In this document: in pieces, positions 2,098 through 63,243 of the stretch
Numbering within the stretch: the first letter of the stretch is position 1
Layout: every line of letters starts with the position of its first letter
Origin: a virus
Reading direction: 5' to 3' (one strand)
Length of the DNA: 64,000 nucleotides
Virus record (IMG/VR): IMGVR_UViG_3300035492_000180
Span: 1,353-65,352 of that record
Made by a program: the position numbers and the translations under genes
The notes under the pieces: model-generated
What the model saw: the letters and a program-made list of their open reading frames with translations, nothing else
What the model was told of the DNA's origin: nothing
The model's database searches: none

Positions 2098-2147
2098 TTA
2101 TTGTACTTCCAGCTTTACGCGATCCCGTCAGTTTAAGGGCCTGTGTC
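2098..2147 (+). repeat. 50-bp dispersed repeat, copy 1 (contains class B motif CCGTCAGTTTAAGGGCC)
   Basis: ttattgtacttccagctttacgcgatcccgtcagtttaagggcctgtgtc; 48/50 identical to 21413-21462. Confidence 0.95.
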
Positions 2148-6485: not shown

Positions 6486-6496
6486 GGAGAACTTTT

Positions 6497-7645
6497 GTGA
6501 AAAAGAATCTCTATGTACATTACAAGGATCTCTTAGCTACACGCCAACAAAAAGAAGTGTATGGTAATGTACAAACTAAAGAGATTCTTGGGAAAAGTGA
6601 ACAAAAAGAAAAGAATGACGGTTTGGTATTGCCTGACGCAGATATAATTCTTACAGGCATACAGGACCACCCTTCTTTTGAGAATAAGCTATTCAACAGA
6701 AGTCTTGAGAGGGTTGAAGTTGTTGAGTATTTTGGATTGGGATTTGAGACAGGTTACATTGAACCTCCAAATTCAATTTCAGACCATATTACTCTTGAAG
6801 CACAACAGGCTGTTTACGAAAATCTCTCCACATTCTCAGGTATTCAAAAATTCGATATAGAGCTTCAATTTAATGAAGGTGAGAACTATCTTGCGGCATA
6901 TCATGATTATTTTGAAAATGCTGCAGCTCCATATTTAAACATTACTCCCCTGCTTGTTGAATCAATTTCCGTAGCGTTTATAACGAAGCGCGAGGATGCT
7001 GCCTCAGTAGGAGATTTTGTTGCTCTACAGCCAGCGAAGTTCTTTGAAGAAGTTATTAGTAATACTGAGAGTTATTTCTTTAACATCTTCCCAGGTGTTA
7101 ATGAAGATCTTCAAACATTTGAACAATTAAGTTATTCTTTTGGGACCTCTCAATCTGAAGAGGGGCTTACTGTTGATCTGGTTCAAATTTCGACGGAGAG
7201 GCCTGCAGAGGATGTTTACACCTCACAAGAAGTTTTATTGTATGCACTTGATAAGCCTGATATTTCTGAGATACTTAATACACCCGACGAAGCTTCGCTT
7301 CTTGTTGGCAAACCTGCAGAAGATGCTTTAGGTATATCAGAAGAGACACTGTTTGGTAATAATGCTCTCAAAGAAGAGAGCTCTGTCTTTACAGAGATCT
7401 TAAGTTACTCAGGTAATCAGAGCATCGCAGATATAGCAGGTTCTGTTGAAACAGTTCTCAAAATCTATTCCACAAGTTTTACCCACAGCTTTTCAAATTC
7501 AGATGTTATATCACTTTCACTTGAGAGGGCTGTTTTTGACTCTGCTAGCACTGCAGAAGTTAAAAACATGTTTCTCACAAACTATCTTCTCACACCAACC
7601 ACCTATTTCTCAGAAGAGTATATAGGTACTCGAATCTCTCTTTAG
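6497..7645 (+). CDS. putative acidic virion structural protein
   Basis: 382-aa acidic ORF with GTG start after AAGGAG; located in the tail-fibre-like block. Confidence 0.5.
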   Translation: MKKNLYVHYKDLLATRQQKEVYGNVQTKEILGKSEQKEKNDGLVLPDADIILTGIQDHPSFENKLFNRSLERVEVVEYFGLGFETGYIEPPNSISDHITLEAQQAVYENLSTFSGIQKFDIELQFNEGENYLAAYHDYFENAAAPYLNITPLLVESISVAFITKREDAASVGDFVALQPAKFFEEVISNTESYFFNIFPGVNEDLQTFEQLSYSFGTSQSEEGLTVDLVQISTERPAEDVYTSQEVLLYALDKPDISEILNTPDEASLLVGKPAEDALGISEETLFGNNALKEESSVFTEILSYSGNQSIADIAGSVETVLKIYSTSFTHSFSNSDVISLSLERAVFDSASTAEVKNMFLTNYLLTPTTYFSEEYIGTRISL

Positions 7646-7654
7646 GAGTTTTAA

Positions 7655-8107
7655 ATGATTATTGAAAACCTGAAAGCTTCCGGTCAACTCTCCATTGTTG
7701 TTACTGACGAGTTTGGTAAAGTCAAAGAACAAGTCGAGCGTAATCTTGTTGTTACTGCAGGCAAGGCCTTTGTCACTAGCCGAATTACTGGCACAAGCTC
7801 TGCCGTAATGTCTCATATGGCTGTGGGTACAGGTACAGCGGCTGCTGCAGCTGCAGATACAGCTCTTGGCACTCAAGTCGCACGTGTTGCACTAGGTTCG
7901 ACAACGCGTGTAACAACAACCGTTACAAATGATGCTGTTCAGTATGTTGCAACATTCCCTGCAGGAACAGGCACAGGCGCCCTTACCGAAGCAGGGTTGT
8001 TCAATGCTGCCTCAGGCGGTGATATGTTTGCGCGCACAGTCTTTCCCGTTATCAACAAAGGTGCGAACGACAGTATCACGATTACTTGGAAAATCACCAT
8101 TTCTTGA
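7655..8107 (+). CDS. tail-fibre-associated structural protein
   Basis: NLVVTAGK...SHMAVGTG...LTEAGLFNAASGGDMFARTVF, a pattern typical of phage tail-fibre N-terminal-like proteins. Confidence 0.65.
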   Translation: MIIENLKASGQLSIVVTDEFGKVKEQVERNLVVTAGKAFVTSRITGTSSAVMSHMAVGTGTAAAAAADTALGTQVARVALGSTTRVTTTVTNDAVQYVATFPAGTGTGALTEAGLFNAASGGDMFARTVFPVINKGANDSITITWKITIS

Positions 8108-8127
8108 TAAAACTGGGGAGCCTTAGT

Positions 8128-8475
8128 ATGGCAACTATTGTTACACGAGAGGTAGGAGCTACTGCTAAAGGCTCCCCTCTTACAAATGCTGAGTTTGATA
8201 ATAACATTATCAATCTTAATACAGATAAGGCAGAGATCTCCGAAACAGTTCAGATGACCGACATCGGTACTGCGCCCAACGAGATTTCGCTGAATCAGTT
8301 TCTTGGCGATCTTGCTTTCCAAGATAGCCGCGCCGTCGTGCTTAAGCCGCAGCCAAGCGTTGTCCCCGCAGGCGTTGGCGACATGGTGTTCCAGCTAACC
8401 AATGACACCACGCTAGTCGTGAAGGTGAAGGGCAGCGACGGCACCGTGCGCTCGGCAACCCTCACGCTGGCGTAA
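8128..8475 (+). CDS. tail fibre N-terminal-like protein
   Basis: MATIVTR..KGSPLTNAEFDNN anchor-like motif; codon style becomes GC-rich after ~8255. Confidence 0.6.
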   Translation: MATIVTREVGATAKGSPLTNAEFDNNIINLNTDKAEISETVQMTDIGTAPNEISLNQFLGDLAFQDSRAVVLKPQPSVVPAGVGDMVFQLTNDTTLVVKVKGSDGTVRSATLTLA

Positions 8476-14721: not shown

Positions 14722-17700
14722 ATGAGCAATAAACCTGCCAATAATGTTAATACCGAAATCTATGATAAGGTTGTAGATCGAGCAGCAATTAATCGCCTCT
14801 ACGAAGCAGGCACTTCCAAAAAGCTCACTACAATACTGGATGAGCATAGTAAGCGTATCAATAAAATTATTCTCGAAACACCGTCTAGAGAAGAAGCGAA
14901 AAAGCTCATTGATAAGGAGATCAAGAGAGCCTTTGGTGAATTGTATACTACAAATGCCAGGGCTCTCACTGATCTAGCAATGGATCAAATGAGCTATACC
15001 TATCAGACATTGGAAACCTCTTTGTCTAATATCTGGCGAACACAGAAACCAGCAAGAAGCGTTGCTGAGAATATTGTACTTGAGAGGCCACTTTACAACG
15101 ATCAAACGTTATTGCAAGGGTGGTCTTCTATTTCTCTATCTGAAAAGAAAAGAATTGAGCTTGCCATTCGTAAAGGCATCTCTCAAGGTATGAATGAAAA
15201 GGAACTTGCTTTGCTAATAAGACAAAGCAACCTCTTTAAAATTACCCAAAATCAGTCTTTTGGTTTAGCAAGAACGGCGATGACTTCTGTCTATGCACAG
15301 GCAGATCACGAAGTGTATAAAGCCAATGCTAAAGCCTTAAGAGGCTATGAGTATGTCGCAGTTTTAGATAGTCGAACAACAGACACCTGTGCAAGGCTTG
15401 ATGGAAAAATATTTGAGATTGGTGACACTAAGCACCTTCCTCCTCAGCATTGGCATTGTAGAAGTACGACTATTCCTGTCGTTAAAAGCTATGACGATCT
15501 CGCTAGTCTGGAAAACGTAGCTCAAATTCGTAAGCGGAACCTAGAAGGTCTTTCTAAAGAAGAGATTGCTCGTTATGACGGTATGACGCCTTTAAAAGAG
15601 AGCTATTCTGATTGGCTTCTTCGTCAACCTCAAGATGTTCAGCTCAAGCATCTTGGAGACTTGAACAAAGTTGAGGCATTCCAACAGGGGCTTTTGTCTG
15701 TTGATAAGTTTCAAGAGAATGGTCGCACTATTGGAATAAAGAAGCTAAGAGAGCTCACTGATCCTGACTATGGCATCCCCGGCGATACACGTAGGTTTGC
15801 TTTTGCGAAACAGAAGCTTGATGCTATTAAACTAGGTGCAGCATCTCCTGATGATTTTTATAGTGACCCGGACCTTGTAAAGAATTTGCGAGAATATTAT
15901 GTACTGCAAGCAGGAGAATTGGATGGAACACTTAGTTACACTAATTTTCGAGGCAATCTGCTACATACCAAGAGAGCTACTCGGAAACGAGTCTTGACAT
16001 CACCACCAACAGAAGATCAGCTGAAGTTTAACCCAATTACAGGTAGATACGAGGATGTCCGTCTTTATCAACCTATGCCAGCTGTTCTTCAGAACAATCT
16101 TAGACAAGTAAGAGAATCTGAGAAGCTTTTACCACAAGACAAAGAGTTCATCGAGAACTTCATTGATAGTCTTGAGCATAGAATGTCTGTCAATGAAAGA
16201 GCTGTTGTTGCAGATAATCTGCGGATCACTTTTTCAAGATTCCGAGAAAATGGAGAGTTGTGGCAAAACTTCAAGGCAGTGTCTAACTCTCAGATGAAGT
16301 TCGATGTGATGAACGTGTCGGAATACATGGAGACTCAACTTCGTCGCGATTCTGACTTGTTTAACAAGCTTAAGAAGATGGAGTACTTTGACCCTGTTCT
16401 TGGTGCTTCCTCTTTTGACGATTTGCATGACAATTTTATTAATAACATCTTTGAAATGCGTGAATGGGAGTACAAACAACTACCGAAGATTGCTAAGAAG
16501 CTTCAAGGGGCTGCAGCTAAAATCATTGACACCAAGATTCCTATGAAGATCAGGGCAAGATTGGACGATAATGATCTCGAAGACTTCTACCTGAAGTTTG
16601 CAAAGATGCTTGCTGCCTCAGATACACCTGACCGTGATCAGATGGCTATTGCACTCGGTAGATCACTCTATAATGCTGCTAATTATCGAGGAAGTCGTAA
16701 TGAGTGGTATAATCTTGGAGTTAAGATCCTTGATAGCGCCAAAGATAAGGGTTTCTATGAAGTAGAAACTTTTGGTGTGCAGAAACGGCGTATGAAGAGC
16801 CGAATGGGTGGAAACTACTTCGGTCCGGCATATGATACTATGTCTTATAACATTCGAGTTGTTGATCCGTCTATTAACAAGTATGCAAAGCTTGTTCGCT
16901 CTGTTGAAGTAGGTATGCGAGTACCTGCTACAAAGCTAGAAAATCGTCTTTTTGTTAGAGAAGGTTTCAAGACGTACTTCGACTATAGAAACCGTGACAC
17001 AGGTATTCCTATCATTTCTGCTGACTCTGTTAAGTATTTTCCAGCTAGCATGATTGATGAGAACATGACAAAGGCTCTGAATCAAGCGGGTGGATCACAG
17101 TTTAAAGTAGACCAAGAGTTTCATGATGCGATTGAGCGCCTTCTGTTCTTTAAAGATGACAGAGGTAAGGCTGCCTATTACGATGACTTGAACCACTATC
17201 GTAAGTATATTGCGTCTCGTGGTGACAGCTATGAACGTTTCAAGGCAATGAAGTGGCTTAGAGACAAGGATGCAGCATTCACTAACAATCCTTTCTTGGA
17301 TCATCGTGGTCGTATCTATGATCGCGGCTTTATAAGTCCGCAGGCAGGAGAAAGCTTTCGTCCGTTTTTGTCTACAGCAATCGAAAAGAATTTCTCTAGA
17401 CAAGAGTTCCTTCATATGCAAGATCATATTGGTTCTTTTTTAGGCGGTCTGTCTGATAAACTTGAGGGTGAGTTCAATGGGCTTACTGTTCTAGGTCGTC
17501 AGAAGATTGCACAAAAGTGGCGAAAAGATATGGTACAGATAGGCAGACACTTGCGTAGAGGTAAACCTGCAGACTTGCGTGCTGTGCTAGAGCATCCTCT
17601 TACTCTTGAAATTGATGGAGAAGAGCAGGGAAAGTTCTTCAGATTTGCAGTTGAAATGGCAAAGATTGACGATTTCCTTGAAGGCAAGTACGACACCAAG

Positions 17701-20700
17701 AGTCTTGAAAAACTTTCTAATTACAAGATTGGTCTGGCGCTCGAGCAAGATGCTTCCTCTTCAGGTGCTCAGATTATTGCCTTAACAACAAAGAATAAAC
17801 AGCTAGCGGAGCTGTCTAATGTTGTGCCGACAAATCAGAAAAAGCGTTTGTATGACATTATTGCAAACATGACATATAATGATCCGCGCTTTAAGAAGCT
17901 TAATGAGAAACTTGGTCTTACCGAGAAAGATCTCAGAAAGGCTTGAACGAAGGCCTTTTAAAACTGGGTGAATTCAGGGAAACACTTTTAAAGTCAATCC
18001 TGAGCCAAGCTTAGATAGGTAAGCCTATCTTTGAAGGTGCAACGACTAGACCGAAAGGTCGTAGGGTACAAGCGATTGGTACTCGAAGCGCCCAGCCCTG
18101 ATATTTATCAGGTGATGATATAGTCTGGTCTGCATGGTGACATGCAGCAATGCTCCTGCGCTAACTGGAGTTTGAAAATGGAACTTTTCAAGTTCATTGA
18201 AGATACAGAAAATGTTTATTCTGTATCAAATTATGGTCGTATTAGAAACAATACGACCGACTATATTTTAAAACCATTTATTACAGAAAGAGGCTATTTC
18301 CAAGTAGCTATTCAATTTTCATCAAGACCTAAAAGAATTACAATTGATGTTCATAGGCTTGTTGCAAGGCATTTTATTGAAAACCCTTTATGCAAGCCGT
18401 ATGTAAATCATATTGATGGAAACAAGTTAAACAATTATAGCACTAATTTGGAATGGGTCACACCAAAAGAAAATAATAACCATGCTGTTAAACTAGGTTT
18501 GATAAAGTCTGGAGAGGGCTCTTATTTAGCAAAGCTTTCCGAAAAAGATGTTTTAACTATAATCGACCTTCTGAGAGAGGGTCAAAGAAATATAGATATC
18601 GCAAGATTGTATGGTGTGGAACACAATACAATAGATGATATTAGATGCAATAGAACTTGGCGTTATATTGAACGTGATCCGATTCCTGGAAACGGTCCTA
18701 AAAAGAAATTGGTTGAGGAAGATATCTTCACTATCAGAGAAATGTTTCTGAAAGGTTTCTCCAATAGAAAGATTGGGGGTATTTTTGGAGTAGCGCCAGC
18801 AACTATTGACCAAATACGTAAAGGTAATACCTGGAAGGGTGTTGGAATTAAGTAAATAATTTGCAGGAGCATTGGGCTTGTTTTAGCGCAACAAGCTTAA
18901 CACAAACGTCTAAAAACAAAATTATGGTTTCTCTTTATGGCGCAGGTGAACGAACCGGTATTATCAATGTAGAAGGAAAGCTAGCCAAGGTTCTTGAGAA
19001 AGATTCAGGACGTCTTGTTATTAAAGCGGCTGAAAGAGACTCTATTCTAGATCAAATTAGTGCAAGAGCAGCGAGATACAAGGACATTGATACAGACATC
19101 TACGATGAGCTAATGCAGCTTCGAAAAGATGTACGCGATATCTTTAACAAAGGTCTAACACCTGGAGATGATATTCTTGATCAGCTGTACTTCCTGGACC
19201 CTCAAACAAGAGATTTTGTCGAGAAATTAACAAGACAATATGACAGTGTTGTCACTCCTGATGACTTCAAACAGATTGCATCGATAATGAGCGAGTACAT
19301 GGGTGATGAAGTCCCTATTCTAAAGGACTTTACTCGCTTTTTTGGCAGGCTGGCTCAGGACTTTGTAATTCATGCCAAACCATCTGACGCCGTACTTGAT
19401 TGGAAGGCTATAGCAACTGAGCAGATTAGAGGCTCTCGCTACATGGGTAAGAAATTACCCAGACCTCTTGCTTTGGCGCTTGGGCTAAACCCTGATGAGC
19501 CTTTCAAGGAAGCTGTTCTGAAGAGGTTTTCATGGTACAACCCAAATAGCACTTGGTCTGATCTGCTGTTTGGTATGAGAAAGTCTGACTTCAGAAACAC
19601 AGGAGTAAAGAAGAAGTTTCTTGAAATTGAGTATCCAACAATTAAATTTACAAAAGGTGGTATTACTACTTCTGGTGGAAAAGTTACATTAGGCGAGTGG
19701 TCTTTCGGACAACCAGGTAATTTACCTAAGAATTGGACTCAGATACCTTGGGTTAATTTTGATGGTAAAGTTCTTGAGCAGAGGTTTACACAAACCTTTG
19801 AAGAAAGACTACGTTATCGAGATGCTGATGGTAATTGGGTAACAAACATCATCCAAGTGAACCAGAAGACAGACCCTTCGTGGTGGGAAGAAGTTCTCGA
19901 CAAAGGTGGTAAGATTAATGATATTGTCGATGCAACAAAGGCAAGAACATCTTATCCTGTGAATGCAAACCATAGTAATGATGCAACACTTGTCAAGAAC
20001 TTCCACTTGTGGGGTGCAGAAAACAACATTACAACTTCTACTATTCACGATAAGGGATTGTCGTGATTAAACCGGGTTAATTGCTGGAAAAACCTTATTG
20101 GGTCAATCAGCAGCCAAGCTTAGATGGCGACATCTTTGAAGGTTCAACGACTAGGATACACGAACTCTCTGAGTTTATGAAATCCGTAGAAATCAAGTGA
20201 TTTCGAAACGCCCGGAAGACATAATGTCTTAAGATATAGTCTGAACTGCATGGTAACATGCAGATGTTATTTATAGAGGGTACTATGGAAGAAAATTGGA
20301 AAGCTTATAACAAGTACTATGAGATTAGTGATCGAGGTCGTGTAAGGAATTCAAAAACTGGTCATATTCTTGCGCAGAATGTTAACGGCGGAGGATACTG
20401 GTATGTAACTCTGAGCCGGCCTACGAAATATAATCTTACTGTACACAGAGGCATGGCTATCCTATTTATTCCAAATCCTTTTAATAAAGCTCAGGTCAAT
20501 CATATCAATGGTAATAAGTTAGACAATTCTCTTGAAAATCTAGAATGGGTTTCTCAAGAAGAAAATCTAAAGCATGCTGTCGATAATAAGTTAATGCCTC
20601 GAGGCACTTCTAGCTACCTTGCTAAATTGGATGAAGAGAAAGTGGAAGCCATACGTATATCTCTTTCAGAAGGTGTTATGCAAGCTACTCTCGCCAAAGA

Positions 20701-21126
20701 ATACGGTGTGGATAGAGGAACAATTTCCGGAATAAAGCTAGGGAGAACTTGGAAGCATGTAAGACCTGATCTCTATAAATAACTGGCAGAGAGTAACGAA
20801 CTCTGTTGAACATACTGGCCTTCTTTACCAATGCAGCAGATATGACAGCAGCGAAGAATGCTTTAAGAAAGCTCTATGCTGATACTTTGGATAGCAACGT
20901 CACTCTGGCAACGTTAAATGAGATGCGTGCGAGAGGTCTGCCTCAACATTTATATGATCAATATCTGAACGAAGCAATGGATAAGGGAATTATCCCTGTA
21001 CCCGGTCGTTCTATTGTCGGTGGGAAGGTTCTTCGGATTGAGGACATTCTTACAAAAGAAGATATCATGAAGGCTCTACCGCCTGACTACACCTCAAACA
21101 AGAGCTTCTATGGTGTAGGCGGGTAA
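14722..21126 (+). CDS. MuF/SPP1-gp7 head morphogenesis domain fused to a T7-like single-subunit RNA polymerase; spliced join(14722..17943,18909..20051,20818..21126), ~1557 aa
   Basis: MuF motif YVAVLDSRTTDTC..PPQHWHCRS; DHRGRIY; motif A EQDASSSGAQ; spliced motif B RKA|SKNKIMVSLYG (R-x3-K-x3-M-x3-YG); PVNANHSNDA; spliced motif C TIHD|AFF. Confidence 0.9.
17944..18908 (+). ncRNA. group I intron 1 (965 nt), in motif B of the MuF-RNAP
   Basis: P1 aaaggcU/Ggccuuu; P3 ctgggtg/cgcccag; P4 ttcagg/cctgag; P7 gacta/tagtc; AGATATAGTC-like S element; terminal G at 18908; splicing restores frame and motif. Confidence 0.92.
18178..18855 (+). mobile_element. intron-encoded HNH homing endonuclease (NUMOD4-HNH plus two HTH-like repeats)
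   Basis: YSVSNYGRIR, VHRLVA, VNHIDGNKLNNYSTNLEWVT; inserted after P9. Confidence 0.9.
20052..20817 (+). ncRNA. group I intron 2 (766 nt), directly after the catalytic Asp of motif C
   Basis: P1 ucacgaU/Gucguga; P3 ccggg/cccgg; P4 ttgctg/cagcag; P7 gacta/tagtc; terminal G at 20817; spliced IHD|AFF. Confidence 0.92.
20285..20782 (+). mobile_element. intron-encoded HNH homing endonuclease
   Basis: YEISDRGRVR, VHRGMA, VNHINGNKLDNSLENLEWVS; one C-terminal HTH-like module. Confidence 0.9.
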
Positions 21127-21412: not shown

Positions 21413-21462
21413 TTATTGCACTTCCAGCTTTACACGATCCCGTCAGTTTAAGGGCCTGTGTC
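21413..21462 (+). repeat. 50-bp dispersed repeat, copy 2 (class B motif)
   Basis: ttattgcacttccagctttacacgatcccgtcagtttaagggcctgtgtc. Confidence 0.95.
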
Positions 21463-37665: not shown

Positions 37666-38261
37666 ACCTTATTCTTGTACCTGATGAAAATGGTGAGATC
37701 AGCTACACCGCCACGTTTAGTTCAGATAGTGATATCCCTGATATAGAAAACGCTATTATTTTTAAAGGGGAAATACCAGAAATTTCAGACTTGTCCTGTT
37801 TCTATGTTAAAGATGGAATTCTTAAGGAAAGAGAGAAGAAATATAATGACTTCCTGACATGGAATAAAGAGCTGGAGGAATGGGTTCCAGATCTATATAG
37901 GGCAAGAGTGGCAAAGAAACAAGAGATTGAGACTGTATTGAAACGAAAACTATATGAAGAACCCTGTAATGGCTTCGATGCAGATATGGTATCTAGATCG
38001 AGGATTTCAGGATTGCTACAAAGGCTCCAAAGAGGCGATGGCCTCCCTTCAGGATGGATTGGCTGGCGAGATGCAAGTAACAACATGCACTGGTCTTTAA
38101 ACACTCCTGAGCAAGTCTATAGTTATTTGTCGGCCTTGTCGTTAGCTATTGAGGACAAGGAACAAGCAATGCTTCTGTCTGCATGGATGCATAAGAAAAA
38201 CATAGATGATTCCAATAATCTTGAATATATTCTCTCATATCCTGTAGAAGAGGGTTGGTGA
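37662..38261 (+). CDS. tail fibre assembly-like protein (DUF4376-like C-terminus)
   Basis: FDAD..SRSRI..W..A.N..H pattern. Confidence 0.55.
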   Translation: MNLILVPDENGEISYTATFSSDSDIPDIENAIIFKGEIPEISDLSCFYVKDGILKEREKKYNDFLTWNKELEEWVPDLYRARVAKKQEIETVLKRKLYEEPCNGFDADMVSRSRISGLLQRLQRGDGLPSGWIGWRDASNNMHWSLNTPEQVYSYLSALSLAIEDKEQAMLLSAWMHKKNIDDSNNLEYILSYPVEEGW

Positions 38262-38701
38262 TGCTTGTAAGCCAATTGAGCAAAGGTGATATTGAAGCCT
38301 GTGTAAAAATGTATCTCCCTCATGATTCGTGGATTAAAGGAGATTATCAAACGTCTCTCAAGAATTTGTTTATTGCGTCAAAAAGAGCATACGTCCGTGC
38401 TATAAAAGAAGATAACAAAGTTATTGCGTTTTTGTATGCTGAGATCATTCAGCCAGCGCATTTGAATTATTTTTGTCTTAAGCAGATGTATTTCTGCAGT
38501 GTTGGAGGCATCTCAGGAGTTAAGGCTATGTTTGACTTGCATGATGACCTAATCAAATACGCAGAAGAACAAAAGGTTCCTCTTGTCTTATCTCCTGGAT
38601 CACACTTGGATGAGCAAAACAAGTTTGCAAAACTCCTTGAAAAAAGAGGCTGGGAACGCAGAGGATACATGGCCGCTTACAAGACTTCGCACTTCAAGTA
38701 G
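38255..38701 (+). CDS. putative GNAT-fold protein
   Basis: 148 aa; VIAFLYA strand, L..YAEE..V.LV, LLEKRGW motif. Confidence 0.5.
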   Translation: MVMLVSQLSKGDIEACVKMYLPHDSWIKGDYQTSLKNLFIASKRAYVRAIKEDNKVIAFLYAEIIQPAHLNYFCLKQMYFCSVGGISGVKAMFDLHDDLIKYAEEQKVPLVLSPGSHLDEQNKFAKLLEKRGWERRGYMAAYKTSHFK

Positions 38702-38707
38702 CATTCT

Positions 38708-38743
38708 ACCCCTAGTTGAGACTATTCTCTTCTAGGGGTTTTT
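38708..38743 (+). terminator. intrinsic terminator ending the late operon
   Basis: acccctag..ctaggggt-tttt. Confidence 0.75.
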
Positions 38744-38758
38744 AATCAAATTTTATTT

Positions 38759-38786
38759 GCGGAAAAACATCCATCTTATATGAAGA
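38759..38786 (+). promoter_or_regulatory. class A motif (putative phage RNAP promoter), copy 1
   Basis: gcg-gaaaaacat-CCATCTTATATG-aaga; intergenic. Confidence 0.7.
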
Positions 38787-39016
38787 CTACCATAAGGTGG
38801 TTAAACAGGAGAGTTATCATGAACACGCAAGCTAGGGACATTGAAGAATTCATCAAATAGGTCGAAGCACAATAACCGAGTGTACAACTCTTTCTAGAGG
38901 ACAATGAGTACCTTTTCAGCAAGCATGTCAAGGAAAAACACGATCTTCTGTTGGAACTTGAGAAAAGGAATATAAAATTCAGCGGCCTTTATGGTCGTGT
39001 TTACAAGAGGTGATAC

Positions 39017-39493
39017 ATGGCGACAGAGTATTATTACAAGAAGTATTGCAAGGTCTGTGGTGTTCTGACGGACTCCTGGAAGATTTCGAAACAATATTTT
39101 GAGTTTCTAAAGAGATCTCCGGGCATCAAGTATCCAGAGGAGCACCCACACACCTGCACATACGATTGGATTTGCGAAAGATGTGCTCCTGATTACTATG
39201 CGGATCCTGAATGGAAAGCACCAGAGCCATTCAAAAGGACACCTCTACCTACGCCGAAGCTTGGAGCTGCGCTTCCTCCCGCTGCACCTGCGCAAAAGCC
39301 GACAGAAACGGCCCAGGTTCCGCCACCAGCAGCCCCGGCAGCTCCCCGGATCAGTCCCCCCAAGCCGCCACTCCGCACCCCGCCTGTGGCCACTCCGGTG
39401 GTCTCTGCCAAACCCGCAACTCCTGAAAAACAGGATAAAATAGCATCAACACCAGCTGCACCTCGTTTCAAAGTTCCTAAACTCAATAAATAA
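39017..39493 (+). CDS. CxxC/CxxC zinc-binding protein with Pro/Ala-rich tail
   Basis: CKVC..CERC, then a PA-rich tail ending RFKVPKLNK. Confidence 0.65.
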   Translation: MATEYYYKKYCKVCGVLTDSWKISKQYFEFLKRSPGIKYPEEHPHTCTYDWICERCAPDYYADPEWKAPEPFKRTPLPTPKLGAALPPAAPAQKPTETAQVPPPAAPAAPRISPPKPPLRTPPVATPVVSAKPATPEKQDKIASTPAAPRFKVPKLNK

Positions 39494-39504
39494 GGAAGTA
39501 AATC

Positions 39505-39723
39505 ATGGCTAACAAAATCACAAAAGTGAACAAAGAAGTTATCGACCGTCTGGCTTGTATTGCAGTCGGCGTAACATATGAAACAGTCCTGAACGTATGG
39601 AAGTGTGCAAGACGCTATAAGAGTTGGGACTTGGATCTCTTCATGGCAGAGCCGCCTGCAGCACGCAGCACGATTTACAAGGTACGCAGGGTTCTTTTTC
39701 TCAGTAAGGTCGAAGGAGTTTGA
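39505..39723 (+). CDS. hypothetical early protein
   Basis: 72 aa with AAGGA RBS. Confidence 0.55.
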   Translation: MANKITKVNKEVIDRLACIAVGVTYETVLNVWKCARRYKSWDLDLFMAEPPAARSTIYKVRRVLFLSKVEGV

Positions 39724-39851
39724 GATGAGTGAATTTGTCAAGCAACTAGTCGATAGTCAGAAACCTACTGAGAGGGTCTCTGACTACCTCTTGGCTGTGG
39801 TTTGTGGTGTTATGCTTTCTTTTCTTGCAGCATCCTTTATCTGAGGCTAAC

Positions 39852-40181
39852 ATGAAAAAGATCATCACAAAGGTTGTCACACTTCTTGCAGCTCTTCTTG
39901 TCTCTTTTAACGCTAATGCAGATCTTTGTGCAGATCTCAGCCAGCATGTGTTGAAACTAGATCGTGGCAGCATGCGTACGATGAGCGATCGTGTCAGGTT
40001 TGAGATCTACAGTAGGGCATTTGAAGACAACAAGGAGCTCTCTGAAGACAGAAAGGTGGTTATGCGATACTTGACTGCAAAGATCGTGGAGGGGGCTATC
40101 TGGAAATTCTCTGATAGAGAAGCCATGTCGTTTGCTTATGAAGAATGCACGTTCTTCAAACAAGCTACTGGTCTGAAGTAA
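39852..40181 (+). CDS. exported protein (signal peptide)
   Basis: MKKIITKVVTLLAALLVSFNANA-D, an AxA cleavage site. Confidence 0.65.
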   Translation: MKKIITKVVTLLAALLVSFNANADLCADLSQHVLKLDRGSMRTMSDRVRFEIYSRAFEDNKELSEDRKVVMRYLTAKIVEGAIWKFSDREAMSFAYEECTFFKQATGLK

Positions 40182-40182
40182 C

Positions 40183-40210
40183 GCGCAGAAACATCCATCT
40201 TATATGAAGA
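40183..40210 (+). promoter_or_regulatory. class A motif, copy 2
   Basis: gcg-cagaaacat-CCATCTTATATG-aaga. Confidence 0.7.
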
Positions 40211-40261
40211 ACACCGAAAGGTATCTTCATTATCATCTTTCTTAAAATCTGGAGTAACATC

Positions 40262-40759
40262 ATGAAAAAGATCACTGTCGTCTCGGCTGTTGTTGCTGTT
40301 ATCGTCTTCATCGTCTCTTTCCTTTACGCAGGCAGCGCTAAGGCAAGTGAATTTACCGATCCCACGTTGGATCCCGTCAGGATCATCCAGCAGCAAAAAA
40401 TCCTTCTGGTTGATTCAACCCTTGAAGAAACGCGTACTTTCAGGTACGCAGCTGGCGCTGTGGGTACTGGTCTAGGAGCTGTGGCTGGCTACTCTGCGGC
40501 TACGGCAGCAGGCGTCAGTGCAGCGCCTGTTGTTGTAAGTGGGGCTATCATCTATGGCGCTGCATTCTATGGTGCCAGCACGCTCGGTGTTGAAGTCGGC
40601 TACCAAATGGTGGCTGATGAGATTCGCGAGAAGCGGGATGCAGCTATTGAGAAGGGGAAGGGTCTTGCGAAAGACCTCCAGCAGGAAGGTAAAGGGCTTC
40701 TCGATCAAGGTAAGGGACTACTCGACCAAGGGGTTGAAAAGTTCAAATCCTGGCTGTAA
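40262..40759 (+). CDS. exported/membrane protein with glycine-rich hydrophobic core and GKGLLDQ repeats
   Basis: Signal peptide ending AKA-S; GAVGTGLGAVAG; C-terminal GKGL repeats. Confidence 0.65.
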   Translation: MKKITVVSAVVAVIVFIVSFLYAGSAKASEFTDPTLDPVRIIQQQKILLVDSTLEETRTFRYAAGAVGTGLGAVAGYSAATAAGVSAAPVVVSGAIIYGAAFYGASTLGVEVGYQMVADEIREKRDAAIEKGKGLAKDLQQEGKGLLDQGKGLLDQGVEKFKSWL

Positions 40760-40767
40760 CGCGAAGG

Positions 40768-40794
40768 AGGGGCACTCGAAAGGGTGCCCTTTTA
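40768..40794 (+). terminator. intrinsic terminator (GAAA loop)
   Basis: aggggcactc-gaaa-gggtgccct-ttt. Confidence 0.7.
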
Positions 40795-40797
40795 ATC

Positions 40798-41001
40798 ATG
40801 GCAAAGAAAGACAGTTCAAAAACATTCATCGTGAGGATGACGACACGTAGTGTAGCACGCTACGATAATTTAGATATTTGGGCACGTGATAAGTTTGATA
40901 TTTGGCTGAAGAAGTTCGAAATAAAAATGTATGAAAAAGGAGCAACTTGGGACGAGAAATTAAAAAGTTTTTTGATAAAGCATCTACCGCAGAAGCCATA
41001 G
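40798..41001 (+). CDS. hypothetical protein
   Basis: 67-aa basic ORF. Confidence 0.45.
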   Translation: MAKKDSSKTFIVRMTTRSVARYDNLDIWARDKFDIWLKKFEIKMYEKGATWDEKLKSFLIKHLPQKP

Positions 41002-41060
41002 ACACTCACTGACCCTTCGGGGTTGGTGGGTGTTCTTTGACTTCCCTTTATTTTTTCTTT
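41002..41060 (+). terminator. long UUCG hairpin upstream of RNAP2
   Basis: acactcactgaccc-ttcg-gggttggtgggtgt, followed by a T-rich tract. Confidence 0.6.
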
Positions 41061-41187
41061 AGGAAAGCTGTATGTATGTAATCCTTTTCCTGCTTGTTAG
41101 AACCGTATTTAAAATAACATCATATATAACAATTTGGTTTCTAATGGTTGGATTTGGATTATATTGCATCTTCAAATTTATAACGGT

Positions 41188-44100
41188 ATGGTAACTTACG
41201 ACACTCTGCTGGAAATAACTAAAGCCAGACTGGAAAGTGATGAAGTGCCTTCGCGCTCACCTATCCGGATACTTCGAGAATTCGATTTAAAGGAGTTGTA
41301 TGATGTTGTAATCCCTGTCGTATATTTGTATACACGCGGGAAGAAGGATGAACCAATCTTCCTTACAGAAGCTGTTTGTGCGATTGGCAGAGCAGTTATG
41401 TCGCATTTCAAACAGAAGAAGGATAGCGGTCTAGCTGCTAAGATTGGTGCATTTCTTCTTTATAGTTTTGAAGTTGCAGGTATCCTTGAAGTTCTAAAAG
41501 CACAAGGTAAGGGGAGGCACGCAGCATATCAAATCATCATAAAGGATGATGCGAGTATTAGGGCATTATGGGAGGCAATTGATGTAACATCCGTTGATAA
41601 GCTACCAAGCGAAACTCCCTTTGCTCCATACTTCACAACCGAGCATGAAACAGGGATGAAGCTGGTTAAGACAAATAACAAGACTGTATTAACCAAGCTG
41701 AACCCTGTGGACAATCCAATTGTGTTCTCTGCCATAAACAAATCCATGGAGACTGGATGGAATGTAAACGTTAAAGTCTTTGATGTGGCTATGTGGGCAT
41801 TGCGTAACAAGACTGAAGCATTTGACGATATTTGGTCTCAACAAAACCCTGAAGCACGAAAGACAAAATTAAGAGAGTCCAGAACTATCCTTGATATTGC
41901 GTTCAGGTTTATCGATAAAACATTTTATCACGCAATGTATTTTGATTTTCGTGGGCGCATTTACACAGCGTCTGCTTTCTTCAACCACCAAGGAAATGAT
42001 CTGTCTAAAGGACTTTTGCTTCGTGCTGACAAAAAGCCAATTACTCGTGAAGGGTTGGATTGGCTATATGTTAGTCTTGCAAATAACTATGCAGGTAGTT
42101 GCAACAGAGAGGATAAAGCAAAGACAGATAAGATTCCTTTAAAAGATCGTATTAAATGGGGTGAAGAAAACGAAGAGATCTTCATTGCGTTTGCAACAGA
42201 TCCAAGGAAGCACCAAGGCTGGATGAAGGCTGACTCACCTTGGCAATTTCTTGCAGCTTGTTTTGAAATAAAGAAGTTTCACGATTGGCAGGAGAAAAAC
42301 AAAGAGGATATCGAATCAGGAAAGATTGATCCATATTCTTTCGAATCTGGTATTGAAGTGTTTATTGATGGCAGTTGCAACGGTAAATGCTTGCCGTTGT
42401 AAAACTACGTGAATTCGGTGGAACACTACATTCGTGTAGTCAATACCGAGCCAAGTTAAATCGGGTGTAACGACTAGTAAGTCCTGTAATAAGGCATACA
42501 CTACAAGCGATCGGTAGTGGAAGCGCGTAGAAGAGTGTCAACAGGTACTCTTAAGATATAGTCTGATCTGCATGGCGACATGCAGCTGTCTGTGGCGGAC
42601 AGGAGTTTTTGATGAAGACCTGGAAGAGTTACAAAGAAAAATATGAAGTATCAAATGAAGGAGACGTCAGGAATAGCGAAACAGGGTTGGTTCTGAAAAA
42701 CAACACTGATAAATACGGCTACCATACTGTAACCCTGTGGCTTGACAAGGTACCCAAGACTTTAAAGGTGCACAGGCTTGTTGCTACGTGTTTTATAGAG
42801 AATCCTGATAACAAGGAACAAGTAAACCATAAAGATGGAAATAAGAAGAACAATTTTGTAAATAATTTAGAATGGTCTACTCCGATTGAAAACATTAGAC
42901 ATGCTTGCGATATGGATCTTCTTCCTAAGGGTTCCTCACATTATGAAGCTGTTCTTACTGAGGAAGACGTCCAGGAAATTCGCTATTTACTTTCTGAAGG
43001 GTATGGAAATTCCTTTATTGGAAATAAGTTTGGAGTAACTTGTGGTGCAATATATGCAATAAGAGTGAATAAATCCTGGCAACACCTGCCTTGGCCGTTT
43101 CCATACAGATTGTTCGAAGCAACAAAGGAAACAAAGCTTGTAGGTAGCCAGAGAAAAGAAGCTAAACTTGATGAGAAGAGAATACGTGAAATAAAAAGAT
43201 TGCTTTCAGACGGCGTATCGATTGCAGTTTTGCAAAAGAAATTTAATATATCAGGTGGGGCGCTTAGATGCATTCGAGCTGGAACCACCTGGAAACACGT
43301 AACTATTTAGCGTCCGCCACGACGGGGAAAGTTTAGCGAACTTTCCTGAACAAAATGAGCCAGCATCTATCAGCACTTACAAAAGATGAAGTTACTGCAC
43401 CGTATGTCAACCTTGTTCCGCAACAAATGCCTGGAGACCTGTATGCGTATGCAGCGAAATTTGTATGGAAACACATTGAAGAAGAAGTAGCAAAACTCGA
43501 CAAGGAAGAGTTTCTGAGGCTATCTACTTTTGTAGATAAGCTTATTTCCTTGAAGAAAGAATACATTACAGCACCACTTAACTCTGATATAAAGAAGCTT
43601 GCATGGAACAATTACCAAGAGTTTAAGAAAGGAAAAGAGAAAGACATCGAAGCAGCTAGTCTTGTCTATTGGGCACGCTTTACTGATGCAAAGGATCGTC
43701 GAAAGCTTTTGAAGCGTGGTACCATGACTATCTCCTATGGGGTTACGAGATATGGTCTTGGAACACAGATTCTCGACGATGCAAAGAAGCATGGCATTGA
43801 ACTCCTGAATTACATGGAGCACAAATGGGGTATCCTTCTGGGCCAGTTGATCTTTGACACTCTGAAAGTATCGATGAGAAGGCCCATGCAACTTCTGCAC
43901 ATTTTTGAGCAAGCAGGTGCAGAAGCTGACGAGCGTGATGAGTTTCTGTCTTGGGAAGTTCCTGTGACAGGGTTTCCTGTTGTTCAACACTATACAGAAG
44001 GTACAACAAAGCAAATCTGGGTTAATTGCTAGCTCAGAATAAACTCCTCTAATTGCTGGGAAACCTAGAACAGGCAATCAGCAGCGAAGCTTAGACAGAT

Positions 44101-45155
44101 ACCTGTCTTTGAACGTTCAACGACTATTCCGAAAGGAAGTACTGAGCGAGTGCTTAGGAAACGGGGAGCAACACGCACGTGTTGAAGATATAGTCTGGTC
44201 TGCATAGGGATATGCAGTTGTTAAATGTCAACGGAGGCAATGATGGAAGAACTGTGGTCTGAGATCATAGAAGATAACTATCTTGTTAGCAGTCTTGGTA
44301 AGGTGTACAGTATCACAAAAGATAAGTTGATGAAAACGCGTTTTGACAAACAAGGCTATGAAGTCCTTGTTCTTCATACAAAAAACGGCGCTGTTAATCG
44401 AAGTGTTCACAGACTTGTTGCAAAAGCTTTTATACCAAACCCTTGTAATTTGCCAATGGTGAATCATATTGATGGCGACAAGACAAATAACATGGTATGC
44501 AACCTAGAATGGAGCACTTCTTCGAGAAACAATCAACATGCTTTTGATACAGGTCTCCGAAAAAGTGGTGAGAATCACCACAAGGCAAAACTTAGTGAGC
44601 AAGACGTCAGAGATATTCAAGTCATGCTCTCAGAGGGTATGCCCCAAAGGGCAATAGCAAAATATTTCCCTGTAGGCAGAACCACAATTGCCAAGATTGC
44701 AAAAGGGCAGATTTGGCGACATTTGACAGAAGAAGATTAACGACCTTCTTTGAACAAAACGACAGTATGGTCCACCTAAGGGTGATAAACTCTCAACAGG
44801 ATATTACGAAAACACTCTTCGTCTTAATGTGAATTTCCATGAGCTTTTGCAAAAGAGCAAAGGAAAGCAGAAGAGTGGAGCTTCTCCTAATTGTATTCAC
44901 AGTTTAGATGCAGCTCATTTGATGCTAACAGTGCACAGGGCCAACTTTAGAATAACAACAATTCATGATAGTTATGGTTGTTTACTAGCAGACATGCCAA
45001 AGCTTTATAAGCTTGTTAGAGAGACTTTTGTAGAGCTCTACAGATCAGACCCGCTAGAAAAACTTCTTCTTCAGATTGGAGGTGATATAAGTCGTATTGA
45101 AACAGGTACACTAGATCTCAATAGTATTCTTGATTCTGAGTTTTCCTTTGCCTGA
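41188..45155 (+). CDS. second T7-like single-subunit RNA polymerase; spliced join(41188..42384,43358..44022,44762..45155), ~750 aa; start uncertain
   Basis: DFRGRIY; PWQFLAAC; spliced motif A IDGSCNG|SQHLSAL; motif B RKLLKRGTMTISYG; SPNCIHSLDAAH; motif C TIHDSYG. Confidence 0.93.
42385..43357 (+). ncRNA. group I intron 3 (973 nt), in motif A of RNAP2
   Basis: P1 caacggU/Gccguug; P3 ctacgtg/cgcgtag; P4 ttcggt/accgag; P7 gacta/tagtc; terminal G at 43357. Confidence 0.92.
42612..43310 (+). mobile_element. intron-encoded HNH homing endonuclease (two HTH-like repeats)
   Basis: YEVSNEGDVR, VHRLVA, VNHKDGNKKNNFVNNLEWST. Confidence 0.9.
44023..44761 (+). ncRNA. group I intron 4 (739 nt), in the specificity-loop region of RNAP2
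   Basis: P1 ucugggU/Gcucaga; P3 ctcctc/ggggag; P4 ttgctg/cagcag; P7 gacta/tagtc; terminal G at 44761; split codon GT|A gives IWV-QYGPPK in frame with ORF 44829. Confidence 0.88.
44240..44740 (+). mobile_element. intron-encoded HNH homing endonuclease
   Basis: YLVSSLGKVY, VHRLVA, VNHIDGDKTNNMVCNLEWST. Confidence 0.9.
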
Positions 45156-46151: not shown

Positions 46152-46168
46152 CCGTCAGTTTAATGACC
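46152..46168 (+). promoter_or_regulatory. class B motif, copy 3, upstream of the SSB/replication operon
   Basis: CCGTCAGTTTAATGACC; intergenic. Confidence 0.6.
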
Positions 46169-47064: not shown

Positions 47065-47673
47065 ATGAAGTATATTTACGAAACGCATGTAAATAATGTT
47101 CGTATGGCAACAAGCACAAGCTTTGAGCAAGCTCTTGAGGAAGCTGCTAAATATGTCAAAGGCCTTGTCCTTGTGTATGATGCAGAAAAAAGCAGCAATC
47201 TACCAGTCTTTTCGATTGATACAGAAGAGGATGAGGCTGAATGGCGGCGCAAGCTTGAGCAAGACTCTACCTGGATTCGTAAAAAAGCTGCTGTAAAATG
47301 GGATCCGACTAAAGACCTCTTGGATGATCACGTGAAGAAAGAAAAAGGACCTGAAGCTCTGGACATTGATGTTGTTAAAACTAACATCAATCTAGCTGTG
47401 GACCCTTCTCATTACAAAGGGTATATCGAAGAGTTTCAATGGATTGATGCTATGTCGCGGATCCCCACAATGCGCGAGCCAGAGCGATTCATTGCAGCTC
47501 TTGAGATGCAAGTTCGTAAGTATCTAGACCGTCGTGGTCAAAAAGACAAGGACTACCAAGAGATGGGTAAAGCTTTGTTCTATCTTGAGTATCTACGACA
47601 GTTTATTGGGTTCGCATACCATGGCTACGACCGACCAACAGCAGACAGCGTTCATCAAAAACTGAAAGACTAA
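47065..47673 (+). CDS. DUF3310-like protein (T7 gp1.7-like C-terminal domain)
   Basis: VDPSHYK..KYLDRRGQKD..QEMGKALFYLEYL. Confidence 0.7.
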   Translation: MKYIYETHVNNVRMATSTSFEQALEEAAKYVKGLVLVYDAEKSSNLPVFSIDTEEDEAEWRRKLEQDSTWIRKKAAVKWDPTKDLLDDHVKKEKGPEALDIDVVKTNINLAVDPSHYKGYIEEFQWIDAMSRIPTMREPERFIAALEMQVRKYLDRRGQKDKDYQEMGKALFYLEYLRQFIGFAYHGYDRPTADSVHQKLKD

Positions 47674-51839: not shown

Positions 51840-52445
51840 ATGGCGATACCAAAAATTCGAAAAGTCCTTGTGGATGAAAATGGAAATATTTTAGAAAAGC
51901 GTGTTACAAAACTTCCTGATGATGTTGCAAAGAAACCTAAAGCACCGCGCATCTATAAAGCTGCTGACTTGCTTGCAGAATCTGCAACACCTCGTGTTAG
52001 GATAAACAAAGCAGCTCTTGGCCCTAATGGTCATTGGGATTTTCCTGAAGTGCTTGACTCTGAAAAAGCATTTGGATTTATTTACCTAATACATGACACT
52101 ATCGAGAACAAGTTTTATCTTGGTAAAAAGCAATTCAGGGGTACAGGAAAGCTAAATAAAGGAGAAGAGAGTAATTGGAAGTACTACACTTCTTCCTGTA
52201 AAGAGCTTGTCGCCTCAATAAAGAGAAATGGCAAGGAACTGTTTAAGTTCTATGCTCTTGAGCAGTACTATAAAAGAGGTACTCTTGGGTATGCAGAAAC
52301 TTGGTCTCTTTGTATGGTGGAAGCACTTGCGAATAGAGACAAATGGCACAATGGTCTTATAAATAAAGTATCCTGGACTATTACAGAATCTATCACTGAT
52401 AGACATAAAAAGCGACTCAGTGAAATAACCGGAATAAAGTTATGA
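51840..52445 (+). CDS. putative GIY-YIG (Seg-like) endonuclease
   Basis: GFIYLI..KFYLGKK..W..Y..S motif. Confidence 0.65.
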   Translation: MAIPKIRKVLVDENGNILEKRVTKLPDDVAKKPKAPRIYKAADLLAESATPRVRINKAALGPNGHWDFPEVLDSEKAFGFIYLIHDTIENKFYLGKKQFRGTGKLNKGEESNWKYYTSSCKELVASIKRNGKELFKFYALEQYYKRGTLGYAETWSLCMVEALANRDKWHNGLINKVSWTITESITDRHKKRLSEITGIKL

Positions 52446-52624
52446 AATTTATTGCTCAGCTAGTTTTCTCTATTGTTGCAGTATTTGCGCTTGTAGCTTT
52501 CTTTGCTTCTGGATATAATCTTGTAATGGAGGTGCCTGTGAATGAGTGGACATATAAAGAATTTTTCTTTGCCGGATTTAATTTGATGATTCTAGCTGTT
52601 TTTATCAAGGCCTTCAATGAATGA
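52442..52624 (+). CDS. small membrane protein
   Basis: Two hydrophobic segments. Confidence 0.5.
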   Translation: MKFIAQLVFSIVAVFALVAFFASGYNLVMEVPVNEWTYKEFFFAGFNLMILAVFIKAFNE

Positions 52625-58927: not shown

Positions 58928-58951
58928 GCGTTGTATTATCCATCTTATATG
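58928..58951 (+). promoter_or_regulatory. class A motif, copy 3
   Basis: gcg-ttgtattat-CCATCTTATATG, ~20 nt upstream of AAGGAG and ATG 58972. Confidence 0.65.
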
Positions 58952-63107: not shown

Positions 63108-63124
63108 CCGTCAATTTAATGACC
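63108..63124 (+). promoter_or_regulatory. class B motif, copy 4
   Basis: CCGTCAATTTAATGACC, followed by a cccctaga..tctagggg hairpin. Confidence 0.55.
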
Positions 63125-63215
63125 CCTAGATAGCTATAATGCCTTCTAGGGGTAAACATTTAAAAGTTTCAGGTGAGAGTAATACACTTTCACCTTCCTC
63201 TGGTGAATCTCCAAC

Positions 63216-63243
63216 GCGGAGAAACACCCATCTTATATGGAGA
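63216..63243 (+). promoter_or_regulatory. class A motif, copy 4
   Basis: gcg-gagaaacac-CCATCTTATATG-gaga. Confidence 0.7.

Follow-up and report, generated by a model that had tools for sequence, protein, structure and literature searches.

The subject of this analysis is a second phage-encoded RNA polymerase (RNAP) in a viral DNA of 64,000 nucleotides (nt), positions 1,353-65,352 of IMG/VR record IMGVR_UViG_3300035492_000180, which we call the window. The gene lies at 41188-45155 on the plus strand and is encoded as three exons. Judged by its sequence and by a model of its fold, this stretch encodes a T7-type single-subunit RNAP (RNAP2) that is catalytically complete and predicted to be functional. 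The window also encodes a divergent polymerase, RNAP1, fused to a MuF minor head domain. From the gene content of relatives, the two-polymerase set is well supported as a conserved genomic design of the lineage, and two promoter-like motifs, class A and class B, accompany it. The most coherent reading of the arrangement is a relay in which RNAP1 would read class A to make RNAP2, and RNAP2 would then read class B. This would be a two-enzyme and largely host-independent programme, and we regard it as an even call.

The RNAP2 gene and its two group I introns

Read with genetic code table 11, 41188-45155 falls into five open reading frames (ORFs) in three frames. ORFs 1, 3 and 5 match successive parts of RNAP in Pfam (PF00940 at 74.7, 70.0 and 76.3 bits against a cut-off of 22, in collinear order) and in PHROGs (phrog_414), with the matched model positions given in Table 1. 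ORFs 2 and 4 are NUMOD4-HNH-HTH homing endonucleases by Pfam and PHROGs, one for each intron; the one in intron a has NUMOD4, HNH_3 and HTH domains and matches phrog_59 at E=1e-51. The gene is real but split, because the parts of PF00940 and phrog_414 are consecutive and full-length group I introns lie between them. Alternative codes (TAG as glutamine, or table 4 with TGA as sense) leave the five ORFs unjoined, since the pieces sit in different frames, and the three pieces were not taken as separate polypeptides, since exon 3 lacks a start codon. After splicing, the coding sequence has 2256 nt and 751 amino acids (aa), the length of the uninterrupted homologue P0007 (77% identical), and both exon junctions are in frame and agree with P0007 and with the family consensus.

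An earlier interpretation made from the letters alone (the sequence-only reading) had described a second single-subunit RNAP with intact motifs A, B and C at this place, between small genes and the replication module. Pfam, PHROGs and the alignment with T7 bear out the enzyme, and gene annotation bears out its position: small ORFan genes lie upstream and a replication module of DNA polymerase A, 5'-3' exonuclease, primase-helicase, ribonucleotide reductase (RNR) and ligase lies downstream. Its ATG at 41188 and its stop at 45153-45155 are correct, but the continuous frame it assumed between them is interrupted by the two introns. What it called a single-chain enzyme is one chain, yet the whole enzyme exists only after two splicing events.

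In an alignment with T7, SP6, Xp10 and other RNAPs, RNAP2 keeps DFRGR and has equivalents of all of T7 D537, R627, K631, Y639, G640, H784 and D812. They lie in the strings IDGSCNG/SQH (D537; the slash marks the exon junction), RRKLLKRGTMTISYG (R627, K631, Y639 and G640), SPNCIHSLDAAH (H784) and TTIHDSYG (D812), and the C-terminus, ...SEFSFA, aligns with T7 F880-A883 (FAFA). The identity to T7 RNAP is 29% over 658 aa (E=4e-61). Residues 157-751 of RNAP2 align with T7 294-883, so the N-terminal domain is much shorter than that of T7, and the specificity loop is 11-13 residues longer. Among sequences with solved structures, the nearest are T7 RNAP and mitochondrial RNAPs. We built an AlphaFold model on P0007 with the family alignment, instead of on the window's own spliced protein, and obtained a predicted local distance difference test score (pLDDT) of 87 and a predicted template modelling score (pTM) of 0.82. 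The model has a long beta-hairpin (E611-622/E639-651) at the specificity loop, and its top Foldseek matches are T7 and mitochondrial RNAPs, with template modelling (TM) scores of 0.67-0.70 and E-values of about 1e-29. On this model RNAP2 would have the T7 RNAP fold, including the specificity-loop beta-hairpin.

Four full-length group I introns were found in the window with Rfam, two in RNAP2 and two in the RNAP1 gene (RF00028 at 86.7 and 90.7 bits for the latter, with a threshold of 50 bits). For both RNAP2 introns the match covers model positions 1-253 of 253. Each also has a well-formed P1 helix: in intron a the exon end CAACGGU pairs with GCCGUUG (U.G pair U42384.G42393), and in intron b UCUGGGU pairs with GCUCAGA (U.G pair U44022.G44032). 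Both end in G, intron a as ...AAUG at G43357 and intron b as ...AACG, and in each an in-frame stop follows the 5' splice site within 3-5 codons (5 in intron a). P0007 runs without a gap across the intron a site (...FIDGSCNG/SQHLSAL...), and its tblastn match ends exactly at 42384. The homologues available that are uninterrupted at this site are all more distant, such as P0007. We rejected the first helix that Rfam draws for intron a (42349-42375) as P1; the real P1 is at 42378-42399.

The borders of intron b are fixed by a natural intron-less allele. Exon 2 ends with ...KQIW and two nt of a valine codon, and the 3' border lies after G44761, within ...UGAACAAAACG/ACAGUAUGG, as placed by P0007 and the family consensus IWVQYGPP (32-sequence family alignment). 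Exon 3 is also supported by the alignment with T7. Contig L105 (90-94% DNA identity) is collinear with the window save for 44023-44761 (window 38181-44020 is L105 157-5995, and 44762-46986 is 5998-8223), and this fixes both borders. The protein P0127 (353 aa), encoded on L105, contains exons 2 and 3 as a single ORF with 7 differences in 352 residues, and is 98% identical to the window. Placing the 3' site after G44800 or G44821, as suggested by collinearity with T7, is ruled out by P0007, the IWVQYGPP consensus and L105, and a junction with the 5' site after U44026 and the 3' site after G44765 was dropped because it has no P1 helix closed by a U.G pair.

Intron b is located inside the specificity loop of RNAP2. 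At its junction the codon is for isoleucine in the intron-b-less L105 (5984-6020) and for valine in the window (44019-44022/44762-44790), and eight residues past the junction the L105 allele has glutamate and the window has aspartate. Of the 7 differences between the window and the intron-b-less protein, 2 are within 8 residues of the junction. Co-conversion, or a change that makes the homing site resistant, would be expected to leave such differences beside the insertion site.

The four introns of the two polymerase genes are paralogous: the matched segments of their ribozyme cores are 71-96% identical and their endonucleases 37-45%, all share a similar ...AACA..A..G tail, and each ORF is placed after P9. 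We take them to be old paralogues. A megablast search against cultured phages gave matches confined to conserved segments of the intron cores. The messenger RNA of RNAP2 is predicted to need the removal of both introns in vivo before the whole enzyme can be translated. Like the introns of T4 td and nrdB, of the SPO1 DNA polymerase gene and of PhiPA3, these would be self-splicing introns with a homing-endonuclease ORF in conserved catalytic sites of essential genes, and PhiPA3 offers a published precedent in an RNAP-subunit gene (PMC11620839). The window differs in that the targets are single-subunit RNAP genes, and in having four paralogous introns in two polymerase genes of one genome.

In other members of the family RNAP2 is split near motif A and at motif B, so the polymerase gene is a recurrent homing target. 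P0128-P0137 (about 357 aa) are C-terminal RNAP2 fragments that start with MSNNGSQH at motif A, a few codons from the window's site, and P0146-P0198 (about 218-245 aa) are C-terminal fragments that start at or after MTLSYG or GGTRYGLG at motif B. Such fragments suggest that introns or endonucleases have also been inserted elsewhere in RNAP2 within the family.

RNAP1 and the conservation of the polymerase pair

RNAP1 combines a MuF minor head domain (residues 144-251; PF04233 at 66.6 bits; phrog_241) with a divergent single-subunit RNAP, and its gene lies in the late operon beside the portal gene. Near the C-terminal end there is a weak phrog_414 match, and motifs A, B and C are visible by eye. 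The spliced protein has 1557 aa, compared with about 1530-1565 aa in homologues. Both polymerases look catalytically complete.

The sequence-only reading had called RNAP2 clearly divergent from the MuF fusion, and it had named a phylogeny as the check. Both the distance and the tree agree with it. The two proteins share 24% identity over 214 aa (BLAST, E=9e-5), and in a maximum likelihood tree of the polymerase cores they fall in separate clades, each with its counterpart from the cultured roseophage DSS3_VP1. RNAP2 and its metagenomic family form a clade (support 99/99) that joins the DSS3_VP1 and pelagiphage RNAPs among T7-like enzymes with modest support. RNAP1 and the MuF protein of DSS3_VP1 form a separate and very long branch (100/100), attached weakly to N4 RNAPII in what we flag as possible long-branch attraction. 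Given the separate clades and the low identity, the two are not recent duplicates, and the data support their being anciently distinct lineages.

A single-protein query gave no related loci, and a query with the family alignment gave them. RNAP2 has more than 250 relatives in IMG/VR, of which the best 80 are uninterrupted genes. Among the 22 long contigs that carry RNAP2, 21 also encode a homologue of RNAP1, in most cases as one ORF of about 1530-1565 aa, and so do all 20 contigs that are at least 90% complete. DSS3_VP1 (Naomviridae) has both polymerases in the same order as the window: portal, a 1463-aa 'head morphogenesis' protein, capsid and tail genes, small genes, a 732-aa RNAP and replication genes. 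The likeness extends to the Naomviridae more widely (DSS3_VP1 and DSS3_PM1) and to EBPR siphovirus 1, which have matching gene order and a head protein of about 1460 aa that contains the RNAP1 homologue. The differences are that protein identity is only 32-34%, and that the DSS3_VP1 genes are uninterrupted. RNA polymerase is nowhere mentioned in the founding paper of the Naomviridae, so the two-polymerase set appears to be undescribed, and a literature search for a paper describing this RNAP1/RNAP2 pair found none.

The RNAP1 gene is itself interrupted in several relatives. In EBPR siphovirus 1 (L092, 16010-21383) gp47 'head protein', gp48 HNH endonuclease and gp49 hypothetical protein are an RNAP1 split by an HNH gene near the window's first RNAP1 intron, which differs from the annotation of the record. 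In G014, G018 (a 1778-aa frame), G004, G007, G009 and G021, RNAP1 is either about 220 aa longer or broken into shorter frames. The long form could be an intein or other insertion, and the long or broken forms suggest other mobile insertions.

Two motif classes and the enzymes that may read them

Class A is an exact 12-mer, CCATCTTATATG, with four copies on the plus strand of the window, each in a conserved block of about 30 nt that opens with GCG. Class B is a 17-nt motif, CCGTCA(G/A)TTTAA(G/T)G(G/A)CC, also with four copies (Table 1). Both are intergenic and stand at the heads of gene blocks: class A precedes RNAP2, and class B precedes RNAP1 and the replication and structural genes. Two promoter-like classes that fit the layout had been proposed from the letters, and they prove to be real, strand-specific and kept in position. 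One class A copy overlaps a start codon (63237), and class B is often followed by a hairpin.

Table 1. Coordinates of the polymerase genes, introns, motif copies and hairpin in the window
Feature	Position	Strand	Description	Support
RNAP1	14722..21126	+	exons 14722-17943, 18909-20051, 20818-21126; introns 17944-18908, 20052-20817	PF04233, phrog_241, RF00028
RNAP2 exon 1	41188..42384	+	399 codons; N-terminal domain through motif A; ends ...FIDGSCNG	PF00940 1-96; phrog_414 358-515
Intron a	42385..43357	+	973 nt; ribozyme core about 42385-42585; HNH ORF 42612-43310; ends ...UGAACAAAAUG	RF00028, 42345-42585, 65.3 bits
RNAP2 exon 2	43358..44022	+	SQHLSAL through motif B (KRGTMTISYG) to start of specificity loop	PF00940 98-273; phrog_414 517-689; P0007 tblastn; T7 mapping
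Intron b	44023..44761	+	739 nt; core 44023-44217; HNH ORF about 44240-44740; ends ...UGAACAAAACG	RF00028, 44013-44217, 86.0 bits
RNAP2 exon 3	44762..45155	+	rest of specificity loop, H784-equivalent SPNCIHSLDAAH, motif C (IHDSYG), EFSFA, stop	PF00940 290-366; phrog_414 707-816
Hairpin and T-rich tract	41001..41034	+	15 bp, UUCG loop; between last small gene and 40-aa ORF plus RNAP2	
Class A copy 1	38752..38782 (core 38771)	+	GCGGAAAAACATCCATCTTATATG; heads small-gene block upstream of RNAP2	
Class A copy 2	40176..40206 (core 40195)	+	about 1 kb upstream of RNAP2 start	
Class A copies 3 and 4	58940; 63228	+	58940 copy precedes ribosome-binding site and ATG	
Class B	2125-2141	+	ahead of terminase-to-RNAP1 operon	
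Class B	21440..21456	+	about 310 nt past RNAP1 stop; heads scaffold, capsid and tail genes	
Class B	46152..46168	+	CCGTCAGTTTAATGACC; about 1 kb past RNAP2 stop; heads replication genes	
Class B and A tandem	63108..63239	+	class B at 63108, then class A at 63228, 120 nt on	

Relatives keep both the motifs and their placement. In L093 (77% identical), as in L105, RNAP2 is preceded by two copies of class A and followed by one of class B. In 80 loci of more distant kin the class A core has 95 matches, of which 94 are upstream of RNAP2, and the shared consensus is GCGG-AAAA-N5-TATCTTATATG-A. The class A string ATCTTATATG is present in all 22 genomes, nearly always on the coding strand (66 matches, compared with 6 for a reversed-pattern control). 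A class B-like string, CCGTTANNTTAA (usually ACCCGTTAAATTAACCC), occurs in 21 of the 22, with 97 of 98 matches on the dominant strand and 3 control matches. The form of class B is CCGTCAGTTTAAKGRCC in the window and CCGTTAAATTAACCC in most relatives. In G003 and G013 the class B-like motif recurs in the positions that it has in the window. It immediately follows the RNAP1 stop, lies about 1.1-1.3 kb beyond the RNAP2 stop and precedes the structural operon. An equivalent of the 46152 site is present in these two genomes as well as in L093 and L105.

At one locus of the window class B lies just upstream of class A, so the gene downstream could be served by both classes. Pairs in this order, 60-90 nt apart, are also found in G002, G003, G009, G015, G017 and G018. 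The positions are 63341/63412 in G003, 52461/52525 in G018, 65977/66066 in G015, 35631/35694 in G009 and 54263/54334 in G002.

DSS3_VP1 has a repeated motif of its own, TAGGGTGCGTTAAAGAGGGG, at comparable places. About 10 copies of TAGG(G/T)T(G/A)CGTTAAAGAGGGG stand ahead of its structural and replication genes (L005; 2332, 6580, 7408, 19202, 19236, 29396, 45925, 46392 and 46551), and CGTTAAA is common to this motif and class B. The repeated motif also appears to be undescribed in the founding paper.

Three arguments bear on which enzyme would read which motif. Only an enzyme present at infection can read a motif that lies ahead of RNAP2. RNAP1 may be that enzyme, since its gene is one of the virion genes downstream of class B and its product carries a portal-associated head domain; it would then read class A, and RNAP2 would be left to read class B. 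Class A changes very little across the family, and the region of RNAP1 that aligns with the T7 specificity loop is likewise near-invariant (FTQTFEERLRYRD..GNW.TNI.QV.QKT). The window, L093 and L105 share a distinct form of class B together with a distinct RNAP2 loop (NTLRLNVNF vs NTLQLAxCF), and the differences fall at positions aligned with T7 R756 and Q758.

The sequence AATTAACCCT, which is part of class B in relatives, matches the T3 promoter. We keep this as a lead only, because the conservation stops before any TATA-like initiation region.

A proposed two-polymerase programme and its alternatives

In the relay, RNAP1 would be made late, packaged by way of its portal-associated minor head domain, and would enter the cell with the DNA. 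It would then read the near-invariant class A motif ahead of the small early genes and RNAP2, and those transcripts that pass a terminator-like hairpin would reach RNAP2. Once spliced and translated, RNAP2 would read class B, in its window form or in the form of most relatives, and class B would drive the replication genes and the structural operons, RNAP1 included. Packaging, promoter function, the pairing of enzymes with motifs, read-through of the hairpin and splicing in vivo are all steps that we infer. The sequence-only reading had proposed such a passage from RNAP1 to RNAP2. The layout, the completeness of both enzymes and their co-inheritance favor it, but the intervening hairpin complicates it.

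This hairpin, with its T-rich tract, is identical in L105, and L093 forms the same structure from a different sequence. In a strict scan a hairpin and T tract were found upstream of RNAP2 in 34 of 76 relatives, compared with 4 of 228 control windows. Expression of RNAP2 may thus require read-through or another promoter, and this is the reason that we put the relay no higher than even. When the stretch from the hairpin to the RNAP2 start was searched for a third conserved motif, only T tracts and the hairpin loop turned up. One possible role for the hairpin is as an attenuator controlling how much RNAP2 is made. A 40-aa ORF (41072-41194) follows it, just before RNAP2.

Several points weigh against the relay. 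In the window, and in no fewer than 45% of relatives, the hairpin stands between class A and RNAP2. The idea that RNAP1 is packaged would follow from the MuF fusion and the late-operon position only. Unusual host promoters are also possible. Both motifs resemble T7-group promoters in part, in a way that does not decide between the enzymes. The joint change of class B and the RNAP2 loop is a weak argument for their pairing because it is a single event between two clades, for which shared ancestry could suffice.

The strongest alternative, though an unlikely one, is a programme in the style of T7 or Xp10, in which the host RNAP would transcribe the early region with RNAP2, and RNAP2 would do the rest. 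RNAP1 would then serve to pull in DNA, to prime or to transcribe a few genes, and class A would be a binding site or an unusual host promoter. The T7 RNAP gene is transcribed by the host RNAP, and RNAP2 groups with Autographiviridae-type and pelagiphage RNAPs. The terminator-like hairpin before RNAP2 is of the kind that host RNAP obeys. However, class A spans about 25 nt with an invariant core of 10-11 nt across phages from many samples whose proteins are 50-60% identical, and it is unlike a -35/-10 promoter. The region around RNAP2 shows no excess of sigma-70-like sites (16 vs 20.4 expected). In addition, no catalytic motif is missing from RNAP1, and all 20 of the complete relatives have it.

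It is rather improbable that the motifs are processing sites, terminator-linked elements or sites bound by a regulator, with the polymerases dividing the work in some other way. The frequent hairpin after class B and the class A copy over the start codon at 63237 would suit such roles. Against this, the motifs lie between genes and always on the coding strand, where gene blocks begin, and they keep these positions from genome to genome; the one at 58940 comes before a ribosome-binding site and ATG.

Still less probable is that the specificities are reversed, with RNAP2 reading class A and RNAP1 class B, or that they overlap, with both enzymes reading both classes. Class A ends in TATATG-AAGA and class B contains AATTAACCCT, each partly like the T7 group, and tandems of B then A do exist. 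Reversal would place RNAP2 behind its own promoter with nothing to start it, and an injected RNAP1 would transcribe the structural genes first. The class B variant moreover follows the RNAP2 subclade, and class A and the RNAP1 loop stay constant.

That the two insertions have disabled RNAP2, leaving a pseudogene or separate fragments, is very improbable: five separate ORFs under table 11 and an ATG one codon before the start of exon 2 could be read in this way, but both ribozyme cores are full-length and above the Rfam threshold, the exons are free of frameshifts and stops and 98% identical to the intron-b-less allele, exon 3 has no start of its own, and intron-split RNAP2 genes recur across the family.

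Returning to the relay, the comparison that the sequence-only reading had drawn was with N4, whose programme runs from the virion RNAP gp50 to RNAPII (gp15/gp16) and then to the host RNAP. The window has a similar relay-like layout, with two phage RNAPs of single-subunit type, one among the late or virion genes and one early, before the replication genes. RNAP2 is in the early-type region, among small ORFan genes and downstream of class A, and relatives have the same arrangement. The resemblance stops at the components. RNAP1 is a MuF fusion of about 1557 aa, whereas the N4 enzyme is within a 3500-aa ejection protein, and BLAST found no similarity of RNAP1 or RNAP2 to the N4 virion RNAP. RNAP2 is one chain, in contrast to the heterodimeric N4 RNAPII, and BLAST similarity to gp15/gp16 is weak (E between 1e-4 and 1e-9). 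Class A has a linear consensus, and over its 95 sites we found no conserved inverted repeat or hairpin promoter of the N4 early type. Because class B precedes the structural operons, the late genes may not need the host RNAP, unlike those of N4. The window phage also differs from N4 in being a siphovirus, as had been proposed; a tape measure protein gene was found. A survey of MuF fusions and virion RNAPs describes N4-like virion RNAPs as confined to N4-like phages.

With T7, SP6 and Xp10, RNAP2 shares the fold predicted by the model, the catalytic motifs, the specificity-loop hairpin and the FAFA-like end (PF00940), and Xp10 is a precedent for a siphovirus that carries a T7-type RNAP. It differs from the T7 case in its length (751 vs 883 aa), in the second polymerase alongside and in its two introns.

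We think it possible, at slightly less than an even chance, that the whole lineage, a large and mostly uncultured group of long-tailed phages, with its more than 250 IMG/VR relatives and the Naomviridae with their deoxyuridine-containing DNA (dU-DNA), runs the entire infection on two polymerases of its own. The first would be a capsid-delivered MuF fusion with a near-invariant early promoter, and the second an early-made RNAP2 with a faster-evolving middle-late promoter. In some members, the window phage among them, the making of both enzymes would further depend on self-splicing introns placed at their catalytic and promoter-recognition sites. The gene and motif content suggests a self-contained two-polymerase programme not yet described for such phages, and the mechanism is plausible but unproven. 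Outside the N4-like podoviruses, the jumbo phages and the crAss-like phages, import of a phage's own transcription enzyme is known for few groups. If the relay is true, a widespread siphophage lineage has built an N4-like programme independently, from a MuF anchor and an ordinary T7-type second enzyme. The dU-containing DNA of DSS3_VP1 is a possible reason for independence from the host polymerase, and this cultured relative makes the question tractable by experiment. There are also practical uses to consider. The two compact candidate pairs, RNAP2 (about 750 aa) with the 17-nt motif and the RNAP1 core with the motif of about 25 nt, could serve as orthogonal transcription tools, and the recurrent introns at motif A, motif B and the specificity loop offer a natural system of homing endonucleases that target polymerases.

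The window is unusually rich in homing elements apart from its four HNH introns. The primase-helicase gene (52621-55248) has an intein with Hint and LAGLIDADG domains, adjoining a free-standing SegE-like GIY-YIG endonuclease gene (51840-52445), and in the relative L093 the intein is in the RNR gene instead. Directly before the DNA polymerase A gene there is a DUF3310 or nucleotide-kinase-like gene (47065-47673), and DSS3_VP1 likewise has a nucleotide kinase before DNA polymerase I.

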